The position numbers were made by a program. Source: Thermodesulfobacteriota bacterium (GTDB lineage Bacteria; Desulfobacterota; Desulfobacteria; Desulfobacterales; C00003060). Taken from it: 64,000 nucleotides of DNA. Each line of letters starts with the position of its first letter. Position 1 is the stretch's first letter. Location of the stretch: the NCBI GenBank assembly GCA_034189385.1, contig JAXHVD010000008.1, forward strand, positions 64,001 through 128,000, read 5' to 3'. Below, one piece after another: positions 33,001 to 39,000 of the stretch.

Positions 33001-36000
33001 GGGGTGAAGCTCCGGCCCCATTTCCCTGGTAAAAGGGGCTATGCCCGCAGCCGTTGCGTTGAGCCTGGCCTCCAGCAGGGGGTATCCGGGAAGAAGCTGT
33101 TGAGAAGACCAGATAAGGATAGCCACCGTGCCTCCTGGCTTCACCACCCGCGAAAGCTCTTTGAGCAACGAGACAGGTTTTCTTGCGGGATATCCCACGC
33201 AGTCTGAGCTCCACACCCAATCGAAGCGCTGATCATCAAAGGGAAGGGCATTGACGTCGCCCTGGTGAAAAGAGACCTGCCCTGATAGGGGGGACTTCCT
33301 TGATATCTCCCTTGCCCGAGCCACGAAGGGGGCAGAGAGATCGAGGCCAATGCAATGTCCCCCAGGTCCCACGGCCTCAGCCAGCATCAAGGTGACCTGG
33401 CCGATCCCACATCCGGCGTCCAGTCCCTGACTCCCTTGGGAAAGGTTCAATGCCTTTATGGCTGAACAAAGGACCGGCGTCCTCAGAACGTGGGACAAGG
33501 CCAATTGTTGTGCATAGACCTTTGCGTCAGACGATCTGGCCCCACCATGTTCTAATGTGTCGCCCATAGTCCCCACATAGAGTCATCGTTTGACGGGCTT
33601 TTGCCAAAAGCTCTCCTCCCGTAGTTGCGAGCCGATCGGAGAAGTCTCGGTTTAGGCGCTAGCTATCCCTTGTCCGGTTTTTCAATATAGCCATCGGCGC
33701 TGTCCACCGATGGCCTGCCAGAGACAGCCGTGAGGATTTCACTGCTCACCGGGGGGCATCCCGCAATGAAGATCCCCCGGTGGCGGTGCATGGCCGCGCA
33801 ATTGCCGATGCACAGCGTGCCCTCTGGCACGTCTTCGTGGCCTTTTCCGATGGCAATGCAGACCCCTGTCTCTTTATCAAAGTAGTCAAAAAGGCGATCT
33901 CCGTAATGCTTGAGGAACAAGAAGACGGTAGCCTGACAGGCGCTGCATGACTTTTCGTCTAGTATCTTGACATTTGGAAATTCTATGGAGAGATCTTTTG
34001 GTGGGGGAGCAAAGGGAGATATCCATTGGCGCCAATGGGCCGGTGTCACAGAAATGGCTCCCAGGGCGATGACTCCATAGCCGCGTGCTGCGCCCAGGCG
34101 CAAATGGGGAATCTGCTCGGCCTCGGTGCCCATCAACTTGCACGCTACGGCGTCTGCTGCAAAGGCGTCAGCACTGACGACAACGGCATCCAGGGGCTTT
34201 GCCTGTCCGGCACTCGGTCCGAGGCCTTCCATGCCTACGGTGCCGTCAATGATGGCAAGGTGGGGCCGGAGCACGCCGGACAGGTCGGCAATGGCGATGT
34301 CGATCGGTTTTTCTTCCCGTCCCTCCACGGGCGGCAACATATGCAGTTCCACCTTGCTTCGTCGCCAGAGACAGCCTTTCATGTTCTTCACTGCCAGCGT
34401 CACGCCCGTGTGCATGTGCATCTTCATGACCGGAACGGAGACGACAAGATCGTATTCAAAGACTTCCGGGCAAACCTTCAGAGAATCGATGGCAAGACCA
34501 TTAGGGACCGCCACCTTGACAAAGGGTCGGGCATTCATGTCTATGAGGGGACAATGACGCTTTTCTGCGATGGCTGTAATACCAGAGGTGTCAAAGGCCT
34601 CAAGGGCCTTCACCCCCACGATGGGGCTTTCTCCAATAGCGACCTGTGCCCCGGCCTTTCTAAAGCAATCAATGGCAGCGGCCACGACCTGGGGGTCTGT
34701 CACGATGCCTTCCCCAGGAGGGGCCACCCTGCCGGCATTGGGCTTCAGCAGGACCCGTTTCCCCCGGGCAGGCGAAAGATCCACTTGGGCCAAGGCCGCG
34801 CAGGTGTTGGCATAGGGACCTTTTCCGGCAGCTACAAGGACTGACGGCCGTCCTCCCACGGGAAGAAAGGGGCTGTCAGTGAGAGACTTGGATGTCATTC
34901 ATCGCACCTGTTGAAACAAAGGACCATCCCGATAGGGGATGGTCTCGTTATGCGGCCACGGCCCACCGAAATGGGGTCTTAAATAGGGAGACCTTTGCAT
35001 ATCAGAAACAATCCTTCACTGTAAAGGGTTGTGGTGAGGGGGGATAATTTCGCACCATGGATGTTGGAGAGAGAGGTCGCAAGGAACAAAGAATAAGGTT
35101 TCAGCGCTTGGCAGCCCTCTTCTTTGAACGAGACTTCTTGTTCGCTTTCAGGAGTGGGCAATCAGAACCGAGACAATCTTTGTTCGTCTTTCGCTGGCGA
35201 CAGACAACGGAAGCCTCTGCCAGTAACGTAATGGGGAGAATTGTTTTGGACAATTCTGCCGCCTTTTTCAGGGCAATCCAGGAGTCTCTCTGGCAGCATC
35301 GAGCGGCTTTCAGTTTAGCGATTTCAGTAAGCACAGCCTGGGTCACGGTTTGCACGGTCTTTCGCTCAGATGGTTTTAACGGATTGGCGTCAAGTATGAG
35401 GCTGAAGGAAATCCCCACGCCGACTGCGGCCCCGCACACGCCCATGAAGGCGCAGTGCCCCCCTGCAATGGTGCTGCCCCGTTTGATCCCTTCTGAAATC
35501 GTAGCATGGGAAATATCCCCACCAAGATTTCGAAAAGTAGAGAGAACAATCCCCGGCACCATGGCGTGGTGTTCTGGACCGTGGACAGGGATAGCAGGAT
35601 GTCTTCTGATATCTTCTAAGAGGGAAAGCATATCCGTCTCTCTTGTCTCCAGACAGATGTGCTCGATGGCCTTCAGGCCATCCTTCAGATGGCATGTGTC
35701 GCATACGAAATGTCCGTGTTCACAAAGGGCATTTGCAGAAAATGTCTTCTGACAGTAGGCGCAGGCCACCTCTTTGGGCTTTGAAAGATAGATAATGGGT
35801 GCGCCGCAGACCATGCACCCCGATGCCATTTTAGTCGAGACGAGGGGCTGAAGGACCTCACCCGGATCAGCGATGACAAAAGGGGGGCTTTTTACTTCCG
35901 GAGCCTGAAAACAGGCACAGGTGTTTTCTGCTGCCACGTTGGTAACGGCACCCTCTTCGTCAAGGATGAAGACGTCCTCCCCCAGAAGCTCAGCTTCTGC

Positions 36001-39000
36001 CTTAGGCAAATGGCAGACAATCCCTGGCATCAGCACCGTGCCTTTGGCAGAGACGATGCTCGGCAAGGGGCCGCGATACATGACCCTGACCTGTTCCGAA
36101 GAAAGTGGTTTTCGGGCCAGATAGGTAAGGGAAAAAAAGGGGTGTCCCTGGACCTCGCGATAGGGAAATCGTTTGATAAGCTGAATGGATTGAAAACCAG
36201 ATTCCTCCAGGATGCCGATCAGATCCTTTTGCGTCATGGCCCCTGCAATACATTCGCCTCGTAGTATCTCGTCATTACGAATGACAGGATCTGGTTCTGA
36301 ATCACAGACCACATCAGAGATGACCAGTCTGCCTCCTTGACGCAGGACTCTGTAGATCTCCGAGTATGACCGTCGCTTGTTCGCCGAAAGGTTCATGACG
36401 CAGTTAGACAAAATCACGTCCACGGATTCGTCTTCCAGGGGAAGTGCTTCAAGGTAGCCCTTTTTGAAGACGATATTCTTGTAACCTAGATTCTTGGACA
36501 CCCCTTTTAGGCCTTCGTTGGCAAGATGAAGCATGGGGTCCAGCATGTCCACGCCTATGACCATTCCTGTTGGTCCGGTCAACCGCGCGGCCACAAAGCA
36601 TTCCACGCCGCTTCCACACCCCAGATCAACGACTTGTTCTCCTAGCTGGATTTCGGCATCTATGACAGGGCTGCCGCACCCATAGCCGCGAAATCGAAAT
36701 CTCTCCGGGATGTGAGAGATCAATTCCTCAGGATAGCAAACTGGGTTTAAGATCTCTTTTTTCTTATCGCCCACGGCTTCGGTATAAAAGGACTTCACGA
36801 CGGCCAGGCTCTTCTCCTGTGCTGTGGCCAGTAGACAGTTTGAATGGACCAATGCCACACGACCATGGGCCCCGCAGCTTTCAAGGACATCGCCCATCTT
36901 CAAGCGCAGTTGAGGGGCCTGGGTTTCTTTTTGCCGACGGGCTTCTTCTGAGATGAGCCACAGCGCCATCTTTTCATACAAGGGCGTGTAGGGATCCTTG
37001 CCCATGAAGGCATGGCCGTGAATGTAACTGTGATCCGTATCACCGCCGCCCAAAAGGAAGCGCAGGGAAGAAGAGAGCCCGGCTACTGTTGCTTCGCGAA
37101 TCTGGCTGAGCACAGGACTCTGCCGCCAGGCCCTGTCAAGGCCGTCACCGAGCCCCGTTGCCAGCTCGGGGATATTGACTAGTGCTGCAGAAGGATACAA
37201 CCTGCCATCGGGACCCACGGCAAGGGATTCCCAAGCTGTCGTGGTCCCGTCATGGATGGTGTTGGCGGGGGCAAAGACCTGTGTCTTTAGGGCCTCTATG
37301 TTATCGATTTCAATGCCTCGCTCCTTTGCCCGTCGTGATGCGCGAATGAGACCTTGAAAGATCTCCTCTGGTAGGGCAAACTGTTCTGCTTTGCCCCGTC
37401 CCCGGATGAAATACCACATGAAATGGACATTTCCCGCCCCCACGTCAGCTGCAAAATCAACGATTTCAGGCATGTCACCCGTATTGCTCATGTTAACGCA
37501 CATGGAGATGGTGTAGGGGATGTGTTTTGAGTGAAGCCCTTTCAGGTTCTTGACGAGTCTTTCAAATGTCCCCTTGCCGCGAATCTGGTCATGCCGCTCC
37601 TGAAGGCCGTCTACGCTGATCTGGAGATGAAAACGATCTAAGGGCCATCTGCTCTGTGCCAACACAGAGGAAAGCTGCATACCGTTGGTGAGCACCACCA
37701 CGTGGGTGGCCTCATAGGCAAGTATGGCACGGACTATCTCTTCAAAGTCCCTATAGATGAAGGGCTCTCCACCGGTGAACACATATACGCGACACCCCAG
37801 TTCATGGGCCTCATGGGCCAGTTTTAGTACCAGACCGCTTGAGATTTCTGCCTTATCCTCAGGTGAAGAGACAAAAAGACAGTGGTTGCACTTCAGGTTG
37901 CAGCGGTTTGTCACATGAAACCAGAGCTCTTTGAGGCGGTCGAGCTTGAGAATCGCGGCCCTGCCTGGATACGGTAACGGAGTCGTGTCTGGCAAGCGTT
38001 CGATGAACCTATGAACGGAAAGATCTCCATGGAGCCTGCCCGTTTGGCCTATTTGACGCAGTAGGGCATCGCCGGCCTTGTTGGGAACAAACCATGCAGA
38101 TGCTCCTTTTTGAACATAGACAGCGGTGTCCTCGTACTCGATCCGGGTCCAACCTTGAATGTCAAAGCTCATGCTTGAGGCCTAAAGATGAACTAGAAGG
38201 AATTTGGGAAATAGCCCGCTAAGATCCATGTCCCTTTTTTAGATCGCCCGTGGTGCTCTTGTCAAGACGGCGAAAAGAAGGGCCTGCGGGTCCAAGCCTT
38301 GCGTGTCTCGCCTTGTCCCATGGGACCAGGCCTGATGGCACAGGAGCTGTCATGGGATCTCAATCTGCCTGGTGGCCCATGGTTGAGATGGCTCCGGTGC
38401 TGGCCAATTTGGGATGACTATCTGATGAGATTACGCTTTAGGATATGGGTCTTAGAATGATATGGTCGCCTCATTGAGACGGTTCCGGCAAGAAATGCTA
38501 TTGGCCTTCCCTGACGGTAGGTCTTGATCCACCCTCGCAGCACTGGGTACGGGCGGAAAAAACGAGCATGAAAAGAACAGGCATTGCAGATAGCCCCCTT
38601 CACGGGGGCAAGGCCCCCAGATGGCTTTTTAAGCGCATGACCGCCTTGGCACGTCAGCTGGTCCTGGTGATGGTGGAGGAGTTTGGAAGCAGGGAGCTTC
38701 TATTGAGGCTTTCTGACCCCCACTGGTTTCAAGCCTTTGGCTCGGTGCTCGGTTTTGACTGGCACAGTAGCGGGCTTACGACAACGTCCTGCGGGGCCAT
38801 CAAGGAAGGGGTCAGGGGGCTGGAAAAAGACCTGGGGTTTTTCGTGACTGGCGGAAAAGGCAAAGCTGCCTTAAAGACACCGGAGAGTATCCTCGCTTTC
38901 GGTTCATCCCTTTCCACTGATCCCGAGTCCCTTGTCTATGCCAGCAGAATCTCCGCCAAGGTAGACAACGCCGGCCTTCAGGACGGATACAGGCTCTATC

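Follow-up and report, generated by a model that had tools for sequence, protein, structure and literature searches.

A three-domain radical SAM–ArsM–DUF5714 protein of Desulfobacterota as a predicted one-chain replacement for ArsS and ArsM

In the accessible parts of the literature, ArsS and ArsL are the only radical SAM enzymes credited with making carbon–arsenic bonds, and the organisms named as sources of arsenosugars are cyanobacteria. As far as the excerpts of two reports go, ArsS forms DDMAA from DMAs(III) and SAM (PMC13598754; bioRxiv 2026.04.29.721666); in the text available, this adenosylation is presented as redox-neutral, and ArsL is said to bind arsenic with a C-terminal cysteine tail, RCCLKC. 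For ArsM, the consulted portion of PMC5552862 requires at least three of four cysteines (CmArsM 44, 72, 174 and 224). No literature was found under the name DUF5714 or on a radical SAM–ArsM fusion in connection with arsenic, and the arsenosugar literature, with subscription ArsS papers outside the scope of the search, yielded nothing on the fusion protein. In this report, we analyse a window of 64,000 nucleotides (contig JAXHVD010000008.1, positions 64,001 to 128,000) from a Thermodesulfobacteriota genome, G000, in which a single gene encodes such a fusion, P0001 (Table 1). Carriers of the fusion mostly lack ArsS yet keep its partner genes, and the fusion is therefore probably a second, separately evolved start of the arsenosugar pathway.

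Table 1. Features of the fusion gene and its downstream flank, in window numbering (aa, residues of P0001)
Feature	Position	Strand	Description
Whole fusion gene P0001	35101..38172	minus	One uninterrupted ORF, ATG start, 1,023 aa
N-terminal domain, aa 1-60	37993..38172	minus	Three strands and two helices; putatively RRE/PqqD-like by topology
Radical SAM core, aa 87-241	37450..37914	minus	CxxxCxxC C91/C95/C98, GGEP 134-137; Pfam PF04055
SPASM-derived region, aa 300-410	36943..37275	minus	Fe-S Cys missing, from alignment with Cys-intact relatives
Cys/His tail of radical domain	36823..36903	minus	C433, H443, N445, C446, invariant 140/140
ArsM/AS3MT-type methyltransferase, aa 455-690	36103..36810	minus	C499, C591, C641 = CmArsM C72, C174, C224
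C-terminal domain of long-form ArsM, aa 691-755	35908..36102	minus	Ends CxC (C752, C754)
Zinc-ribbon-like module	35689..35817	minus	C786, C789, C804, C807, C817, H821, C824, C827, H828, invariant
DUF5714 helical domain, aa 836-1007	35152..35667	minus	PF18978 E 1e-59; GGxCx5CGAAxG, ARCC, three C-terminal Cys
Terminator-like 9-bp hairpin with T-rich tail	34922..34944	minus	About 160 nt downstream of stop; pattern only

The three-domain architecture proposed in the initial annotation was recovered with identical Pfam limits (Radical_SAM 87-241, Methyltransf_31 511-656, DUF5714 836-1007), and the AlphaFold model of P0001 has a mean pLDDT of 91 and a pTM of 0.75. An artefactual fusion is ruled out by 120 full-length homologues, all of those listed, with lengths of 976-1,109 aa, identities of 55-97% and each of the three Pfam domains. 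Recurrence is wider than had been claimed: 33 of 400 other genomes of the phylum match at E<1e-100, 25 of them whole in one frame, five cut by a contig end, two frameshifted and one as two abutting genes. Recurrence across Desulfobacterota thus holds within the phylum but is not confined to it, as record titles also name Chlorobium, Planctomycetota, Anaerolineales, Myxococcales and Fibrobacterota. Most of the shorter matches to the radical part (n=51) appear to be incomplete or to come from short contigs. An independent study (run X3) provides contigs over 30 of 30 bins of the stretch, with none of the listed pieces spanning it whole, and two wetland RNA runs contain near-identical pieces (215 nt with no differences; 150 and 222 nt with one and four) at a depth below 5 and with DNA carry-over possible. 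The hairpin pattern downstream suggests that the gene is read alone at this locus, in a window where eight terminator-like hairpin sites were found versus 7.0 expected in shuffles.

The radical part belongs to the radical SAM superfamily (PF04055, 80.7 bits against a cut-off of 29.5), and C91, C95 and C98 are invariant in 140/140 homologues. An orthology with ArsS was rejected: identity is 23% over 138 aa (E 4e-4), the two fall on separate branches, ArsS proteins score 38-49 bits on the core profile of the fusion and form their own clade, and no match to the ArsS model TIGR04167 (cut-off 300 bits) was found in G000 at E<=1e-40. The domain is instead most like the peptide maturases SkfB, CteB and PqqE, which counts against a DDMAA synthase. 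In the AlphaFold model, residues 1-60 form strands 8-13, 16-21 and 27-30 and helices 32-44 and 51-59; relatives carry PqqD and TusA domains, and Pfam places PqqD at the N-terminus of two distant ones (P0243 and P0256) and finds no match to it on P0001 itself. Alignment with Cys-intact relatives, which match PF13186 whereas P0001 does not, shows the SPASM motifs altered from YPC to YPS, from CGGGC to LGGGDxDH and from DPYC to DPYT, with CxxC gone; position 328 is S or T and D378 is kept in all 140 homologues. The domain ends in C433-x9-H443-S-N-C446, where Cys-intact relatives have C...HCxC, the terminal end of the stand-alone proteins, and this tail is a candidate arsenic-binding arm. The ESM Atlas returned nothing named, only radical SAM and DUF5714 clusters.

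The middle domain has the SAM-binding fold and at least three of the four cysteines by which ArsM is recognized. It matches PDB 4kw7/4fr0 at E 5e-35 with YGCG, SNCV and GEC aligned, Foldseek ranks 1-11 are all ArsM/AS3MT, and C499, C591 and C641 are invariant in 140/140 homologues. The fourth arsenic cysteine is left uncertain, however, by replacement of the N-terminal CC motif in the fusion clade: the ELCCP of relatives in the region equivalent to C44 is EILNP here, C479 occurs in 106/140, and the invariant C433 and C446 lie further upstream. The NF040538 profile aligns to residues 579-752, reaching position 354 of 356, and C754 is invariant among homologues. The earlier observation that NCBIfam scores fall below cut-off is borne out for the best 25 of 97 rows, including the ArsM models PRK11873 (NF008823; 206/263), NF038099 (120/400) and NF040538 (159/500); these ArsM scores, like the uncertain fourth cysteine, count against a DDMAA synthase. 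A genuine ArsS–ArsM fusion is likewise under the ArsM cut-off (151/263).

Zinc-ribbon/RING Pfam matches to the module preceding DUF5714 are weak. The label MbdU-like survives for a zinc-ribbon plus DUF5714 module common to both proteins and for nothing beyond it: the MbdU profile (NF045648), for which more than 600 bits and two selenocysteines are expected, gives 141/600 bits over residues 782-1017 (profile positions 37-275), and no in-frame stop lies inside 44 DUF5714 matches. Selenocysteine in the fusion was rejected, as the TGA stops of G305 are downstream of a frameshift, and the stops flagged in G010 and G377 fall beyond the part that aligns. At E<=5, 26 of 53 DUF5714 members, P0001 not among them, match PF09719 (C_GCAxxG_C_C; best 2e-5), and VIA aligned DUF5714 with split-Soret cytochrome c (1h21) at Z 5.5, below the level treated as reliable for helical bundles (rmsd 4.0, 121 aligned, 20% identity) and tied with CyuA (9fsl, Z 6.0). 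Foldseek found no match to DUF5714 at E<=0.001, and a PDB sequence profile only weak zinc-finger rows. Stand-alone DUF5714 genes adjoin arsM or ArsR in three of five annotated contexts (arsM with ArsR; ArsR with an LMW phosphatase; ArsR), which argues for a DDMAA synthase; the remaining two, not arsenic-related, argue against it.

The distribution of the fusion links it to the arsenosugar-associated genes. TIGR04282 is present in 33/33 fusion carriers versus 169/367 other genomes of the phylum, and among these 400 genomes ArsS is found in 3/33 carriers versus 129/169 TIGR04282-positive non-carriers (by family, 5/20 versus 47/57). Kin among genomes are not independent, and a test within five mixed families, with three observed versus 5.7 expected, gives only p=0.023. 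TIGR04169 exceeds its cut-off in 0/31 fusion-only genomes versus 26/46 ArsS genomes, in favour of displacement, although its absence may be a by-product of its linkage to arsS. Against displacement, the three carriers with ArsS have both enzymes, and 34 of 40 TIGR04282 genomes without fusion and ArsS show no substitute. In addition, the arsenosugar label of TIGR04282, TIGR04283 and TIGR04169 is an NCBIfam name, and we found no experimental paper on these families.

The fusion occurs with arsenosugar-associated genes, as is characteristic of ArsS: TIGR04282/04283, PRK06370, VTT, DUF547 or DUF3047 flank it in 25/79 fetched loci, but no marker gene is nearby in the other 54. Among the 26 genomes for which coordinates are listed, the fusion lies less than 10 kb from TIGR04282 in 10, and less than 250 bp away in five. 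MTAP (0/79 loci) and MtnA (2/79) are not regular neighbours. G000 carries TIGR04283 over its cut-off but, against the reading, TIGR04282 is absent from it and from 9/9 congeners searched. Three congeners (G403, G405, G407) have TIGR04169–ArsS between VTT and glucokinase, whereas the orthologous locus of G000, gap-free at 67-79% DNA identity, lacks both, with no ArsS elsewhere in the genome; against this, the congener G409 (97% complete) keeps TIGR04283–PRK06370–VTT and has neither ArsS nor the fusion. In genus g62, VTT–PRK06370 is adjoined by ArsS (G058) or by the fusion (G278, G329), and natural ArsS–ArsM fusions occupy the same neighbourhood in G168 and G162. In three genomes in which no ArsS was detected, the gene directly after TIGR04169, at 3 kb from TIGR04282, encodes a distant stand-alone relative of the radical domain. 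The neighbours in the window (DUF362, two methyltransferases, DUF763, DUF2784 and a chalcone-isomerase-like gene) include no arsenic gene, which counts against the reading; a local operon was rejected, as none of them recurs across 79 related loci. Flat GC content gives no compositional sign of recent transfer.

Together, the invariant ArsM cysteines, the association with arsenosugar-associated genes and the near-exclusion of ArsS favour the one-protein organoarsenic pathway put forward in the initial annotation. We propose that the fusion is a likely one-chain synthase leading from As(III) through DMA(III) to an adenosyl-arsenical (DDMAA), and that its replacement of ArsM and ArsS probably represents a non-orthologous displacement at the start of arsenosugar-type organoarsenicals. 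Judging from its family and its catalytic cysteines, the ArsM domain would convert As(III) to DMAs(III) in two SAM-dependent methylations. Context and distribution point to a second step, in which the C433..H443-S-N-C446 arm may hold the trivalent arsenical or pass it to the radical SAM domain, which would cleave a further SAM on a single [4Fe-4S] cluster and add the 5'-deoxyadenosyl radical to arsenic, giving DDMAA; the redox-neutral adenosylation of ArsS would account for the dispensability of the auxiliary SPASM clusters. In the weakest step of the model, the zinc-ribbon/DUF5714 part would be a thiol or metal redox module that holds the arsenic or the active-site cysteines in reduced form, as the peroxidase-like TIGR04169 partner does in ArsS loci. 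The ribose would then be elaborated by transferases with genes of their own (TIGR04283 and, in most cases, TIGR04282). On balance, we also lean towards a third, independently evolved radical SAM class of carbon–arsenic bond formation after ArsS and ArsL, built on an RRE/SPASM peptide-maturase scaffold that shed its clusters stepwise and was fused with ArsM and a built-in DUF5714 thiol-redox module, so that one chain would convert inorganic As(III) into an adenosyl-arsenical or an organoarsenical of a new kind.

It is rather unlikely that the fusion, while forming a carbon–arsenic bond, feeds the same transferases with a product unlike that of ArsS, arising for example by ACP transfer as in ArsL, by adenosylating MAs(III) or As(III) ahead of methylation, as a thio-arsenical, or by a further radical step on a methylated arsenical. 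The separate origin of the radical domain, its ArsL-like cysteine tail, the match of the ArsM domain to the arsinothricin ArsM profile as far as its C-terminus and the retention of both enzymes in three genomes would suit such a product, but near-exclusion with ArsS and common neighbours most simply indicate the same one, no ArsL model is among the best 25 of 97 NCBIfam rows, and P0001 lacks RCCLKC. The loss of the SPASM cysteines required for oxidative cross-linking also weakens a quite improbable alternative, in which the radical domain acts on a peptide or protein (as a RiPP-type maturase, or in maturation of the ArsM or DUF5714 part or a partner) or else on an organic cofactor, the ArsM-like domain transfers methyl groups to a non-arsenic substrate (a thiol, selenium or a metal), and the gene set is a common detoxification or redox module instead of an arsenosugar pathway. 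This alternative draws on the RRE-like N-terminus and SPASM ancestry, with SkfB, CteB, SuiB and anSME as best structures, on PqqD and TusA domains in relatives, on one stand-alone DUF5714 in a corrinoid methyltransferase cluster and on the use of selenocysteine by the MbdU and ArsS families; against it, no precursor-like ORF of at least 60 aa, the length searched, recurs across lineages, and the invariance of the ArsM cysteines and a distribution mirroring that of ArsS point the same way.

Plain arsenic resistance, with a detoxifying ArsM and merely accessory redox or regeneration functions for the radical and DUF5714 parts, would leave the exclusion with ArsS unexplained and is highly improbable. 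Although stand-alone DUF5714 occurs with arsM, ArsR and ArsC-like genes, and G000 encodes Acr3 and no second protein that matches ArsM strongly, no ArsR, Acr3 or ArsC was found among the 61 recurring-neighbour representatives scanned (singletons and some clusters left out), the radical SAM motif is invariant, and the ArsM of the fusion groups apart from two resistance-type ArsMs. If the DDMAA-synthase model is true, it would describe a new organoarsenical route in anoxic sediments, in which sulfate reducers, green sulfur bacteria and planctomycetes use an unrelated radical domain in place of ArsS. A third class of carbon–arsenic bond-forming enzyme would, together with ArsS, imply that many Desulfobacterota and other anaerobes, a large share of them, make arsenosugar-type compounds in sediments. 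The model would also give DUF5714 its first function and show a peptide-maturase scaffold turned into a small-molecule adenosyltransferase through loss of SPASM clusters; a single gene would suffice to test the route.

Among known systems, the peptide maturases of the RRE/SPASM type (SkfB 6efn, CteB 5wgg, PqqE 6c8v) are the closest solved relatives of residues 1-450 in sequence and fold, but in the fusion the auxiliary-cluster cysteines are replaced, an ArsM is attached and no recurring precursor gene is seen. With ArsM/AS3MT proteins (CmArsM 4fr0/4kw7, CrArsM 5evj, human 8xt7), it has in common the fold, the SAM motif, three arsenic cysteines and the long C-terminal domain; its ArsM is, however, embedded in a 1,023-aa chain, scores under the PRK11873 cut-off and has no clearly placed fourth N-terminal cysteine. 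The last part resembles MbdU in zinc ribbon and DUF5714, over half of the MbdU profile but without an in-frame UGA, and, weakly in sequence and fold, the C_GCAxxG_C_C family (PF09719; split-Soret cytochrome c 1h21). The arsinothricin pair ArsL and ArsM likewise sets radical SAM carbon–arsenic chemistry beside ArsM, with a cysteine tail ending the radical domain, whereas the fusion lacks RCCLKC, reaches only 159/500 on NF040538 and has arsenosugar-associated transferases as neighbours. Unlike ArsS, it starts in an RRE-like manner, has a degenerate SPASM region and the C..HSNC tail, lacks selenocysteine and a TIGR04169 partner, and carries a zinc-ribbon/DUF5714 part in addition; as with ArsS and ArsM, a radical SAM enzyme is paired or fused with ArsM, the neighbours TIGR04282, TIGR04283, PRK06370, VTT, DUF547 and DUF3047 are common to both, natural ArsS–ArsM fusions occur in the same gene set, and the two distributions are complementary.

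The domains that the initial annotation had assigned to the fusion protein of the window (P0001), namely Pfam Radical_SAM at residues 87-241, Methyltransf_31 at 511-656 and DUF5714 at 836-1007, were all recovered, and its statement that NCBIfam scores lie below cut-off held for the best 25 of 97 matches. The reported recurrence in other Desulfobacterota was also borne out: 33 of 400 other phylum genomes carry a match (E<1e-100), whole and in one frame in 25, ended by a contig edge in five (among them G377, whose match has no radical part), frameshifted in two and split in one. 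The best 120 of 961 homologues are all full length with the identical three-domain set. These homologues and the phylum matches rule out an assembly artefact, and the fusion represents a genuine family of uncharacterised enzymes. Chlorobium, Planctomycetota, Anaerolineales, Myxococcales and Fibrobacterota appear among the titles of related records, and Syntrophotalea acetylenivorans and Desulfuromonas sp. AOP6 are cultured organisms with a homologue. Genome G200 encodes the fusion in two genes that abut one another, one for the radical-ArsM part (761 aa) and one for C-domain, zinc ribbon and DUF5714 (334 aa); their operon also includes VTT, TIGR04282 and TIGR04283.

Coordinates of the fusion gene and of other features (G000, source genome of the window; other G, phylum genomes; C, contigs of G000; L, fetched loci)
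Feature	Location	Strand	Remark
Fusion gene	window 35101-38172	minus	1,023 aa, single open frame
DUF362 protein gene	window 33663-34898	minus	additional C-terminal Cys-rich segment CSAC...CIGNC...GCPP
Tandem two-domain class I methyltransferase	window 29943-31547	plus	534 aa
Single class I methyltransferase	window 32683-33576	minus	297 aa
Secreted-looking beta-helix/PKD protein	window 24740-27811	minus	also 1,023 aa, by coincidence
Acr3 arsenite exporter and TIGR04283 gene	G000:C2:82110-83225 and G000:C30:21901-22572		both distant from fusion
Two-gene form of fusion	L147:1684-4967 (G200)
Separate zinc ribbon-DUF5714 gene	L153:11971-12660 (G032)		directly upstream of full fusion; 313 bits on MbdU
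MTA phosphorylase gene	L162:7168-7986 (G058)		between TIGR04282 and TIGR04169-ArsS
Third kind of radical SAM-ArsM fusion	L174:4676-6568 (G280), L175:6902-8746 (G060)		615-631 aa; genomes TIGR04282-positive
Stand-alone distant relative of radical domain, family f60	L188:2388-3944 (G382), L189, L190		C-terminal tail SC...YCICFA

The AlphaFold model of the fusion (140 alignment rows as input, pLDDT 91) begins with a domain of three strands and two helices that, judged from the model, is probably RRE-like; relatives have Pfam PqqD at the matching position. C91, C95 and C98 of the radical core are invariant, and the 110 residues that follow are SPASM-derived with all canonical cysteines substituted (in 140 of 140 rows, YPC to YPS/T and CGGGC to xGGGD). 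When 1.84 billion representatives were searched with a profile, the relatives formed a graded series, leading from Cys-intact radical SAM/SPASM-ArsM fusions in both domain orders through forms with a partial SPASM motif to the fusion clade; a C...HCxC tail closes the radical domain in most of the series and takes the invariant form C433-x9-H443-S-N-C446 in the fusion. Trees (FastTree, midpoint-rooted) had moderate support, and on the radical tree one fusion, P0204, was placed outside the fusion clade. Among radical-domain relatives, P0243 and P0256 combine an N-terminal PqqD with a C-terminal TusA in place of ArsM, the methyltransferase of P0229, P0233 and P0254 lacks the YGCG motif of ArsM, and P0224, P0232 and P0242 have the reverse order, ArsM then Cys-intact radical SAM/SPASM, their ArsM clustering with resistance-type ArsMs in the tree.

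The methyltransferase is ArsM-like both by sequence (CmArsM, E 5e-35) and by fold (Foldseek ranks 1-11); C499, C591 and C641 align with C72, C174 and C224 of CmArsM, and the fourth cysteine has no clear placement. A disordered linker, a zinc-ribbon-like module and DUF5714 follow. DUF5714 returned no match in a Foldseek search; C_GCAxxG_C_C was weakly matched by 26 of 53 members (best E 2e-5), and comparison with split-Soret cytochrome c gave a VIA Z of 5.5, tied with CyuA. Kinship with C_GCAxxG_C_C/split-Soret is a lead and not a membership.

Taken together, our analysis suggests that the fusion probably follows an ArsS-type overall route inside one chain. ArsS is described as adding the 5'-deoxyadenosyl radical to DMAs(III); the product is DDMAA and the turnover is redox-neutral (PMC13598754; bioRxiv 2026.04.29.721666). 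For ArsL, a C-terminal cysteine tail that binds arsenic is described (bioRxiv 2024.02.01.577332; bioRxiv 2026.04.29.721666). By analogy, the ArsM domain would produce DMAs(III), the C..HSNC arm would present it to the radical domain, that single-cluster domain would adenosylate it, and DUF5714 may keep the thiol or arsenic redox state.

In the same 400 genomes, ArsS (TIGR04167) was found in 144 and TIGR04282 in 202, including 33 of 33 fusion carriers. ArsS occurs in 3 of these 33 carriers versus 129 of 169 TIGR04282-positive non-carriers (Fisher 2e-13, overstated by kinship), or 5 of 20 versus 47 of 57 when counted by family; in five mixed families, three double positives were observed versus 5.7 expected (p=0.023). 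TIGR04169, the peroxidase-like partner in ArsS loci, exceeded its cut-off in 26 of 46 ArsS genomes (the first of the 129 in handle order) and in none of 31 genomes that have the fusion but no ArsS. The 40 TIGR04282 genomes with neither ArsS nor fusion comprise 34 in which no substitute was seen, four with a distant relative and two with a radical SAM-ArsM fusion of a third kind. In the tree, the radical part of this third kind groups as sister to ArsS, yet its TIGR04167 score is 66/300.

Comparison of individual loci agrees with this near-exclusion in three cases. In three of nine congeners, TIGR04169 and a UGA-containing ArsS lie between VTT and glucokinase (longest stretch, in G403, zwf-PRK06370-DUF547-VTT-glk-hydrolase); G000 retains this locus on contig C19 (no N, DNA identity 67-79%), TIGR04169 and ArsS were found neither there nor elsewhere in G000, and among the ten genomes G000 alone has the fusion. 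In genus g62, the neighbour of VTT-PRK06370 is ArsS in G058 and the fusion in G278 and G329. In three f60 genomes without detected ArsS, the stand-alone distant relative directly follows a TIGR04169-like gene, 3 kb from TIGR04282. Natural ArsS-ArsM fusions were found within the same gene set. Stand-alone DUF5714 genes adjoin arsM and ArsR in Paraclostridium and come after ArsR in G128, and the one in E. eligens has ArsR on one side and an LMW phosphatase on the other; such neighbours were not seen in Selenomonas or the G016 corrinoid cluster, nor was an ars gene evident in four further phylum-genome contexts (ORF lists only). The in-frame TGA near the ArsS C-terminus (GSGFT*AG) at L209-L211 (congeners G405, G403 and G407) is, as read from sequence, consistent with selenocysteine, and many ArsS matches of the 400-genome search contain one TGA. 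The MTA phosphorylase of G058 is a candidate to release adenine from DDMAA; its gene was found near the fusion in 0 of 79 loci.

The fusion gene stands alone in the window, with a terminator-like hairpin downstream and the DUF362 gene beyond it, and none of its window neighbours recurs among the 79 related loci; the two nearby methyltransferases also lack ArsM motifs. Neighbours recurring across lineages (61 representatives scanned; 98 clusters in total; singletons left out) are TIGR04282, TIGR04283, PRK06370, VTT, DUF547 and DUF3047. At least one of the six was present at 25 of the 79 loci; many loci are short. NCBIfam labels TIGR04282 and TIGR04283 'arsenosugar biosynthesis glycosyltransferases'; such partner-family names are annotations, behind which the literature search traced no experiments. 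In ten Maridesulfovibrio/Desulfovibrio loci (L060, L073, L075, L076, L078, L083, L085, L086, L099 and L100), comF and an rplU-like gene flank the fusion, and an arsenic-related neighbour is absent.

Some observations count against the ArsS-type route. The closest likeness of the radical domain is to peptide maturases, as would suit a peptide, protein or non-arsenic substrate, a reading that we consider improbable. TIGR04282 is absent from G000 and all nine congeners searched, ArsS bearers included (G000 has TIGR04283 over cut-off), and congener G409 retains part of the locus with neither ArsS nor fusion. An As-C product unlike that of ArsS is a reading that we regard as unlikely given the near-exclusion of ArsS and fusion. 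Arsenic resistance only, which the stand-alone DUF5714 genes beside arsM or ArsR would also suit, seems very improbable for a protein with an invariant radical core.

The ArsS-type reading is directly testable. Neither DUF5714 nor such a radical SAM-ArsM fusion was named in the literature searched, a scope outside which the primary ArsS papers lie. Among known systems, the fusion is proposed to work like ArsS plus ArsM, yet it is not an ArsS; nor is it an ArsL, an intact SPASM enzyme or an MbdU (NF045648), the family with which it shares zinc ribbon and DUF5714.
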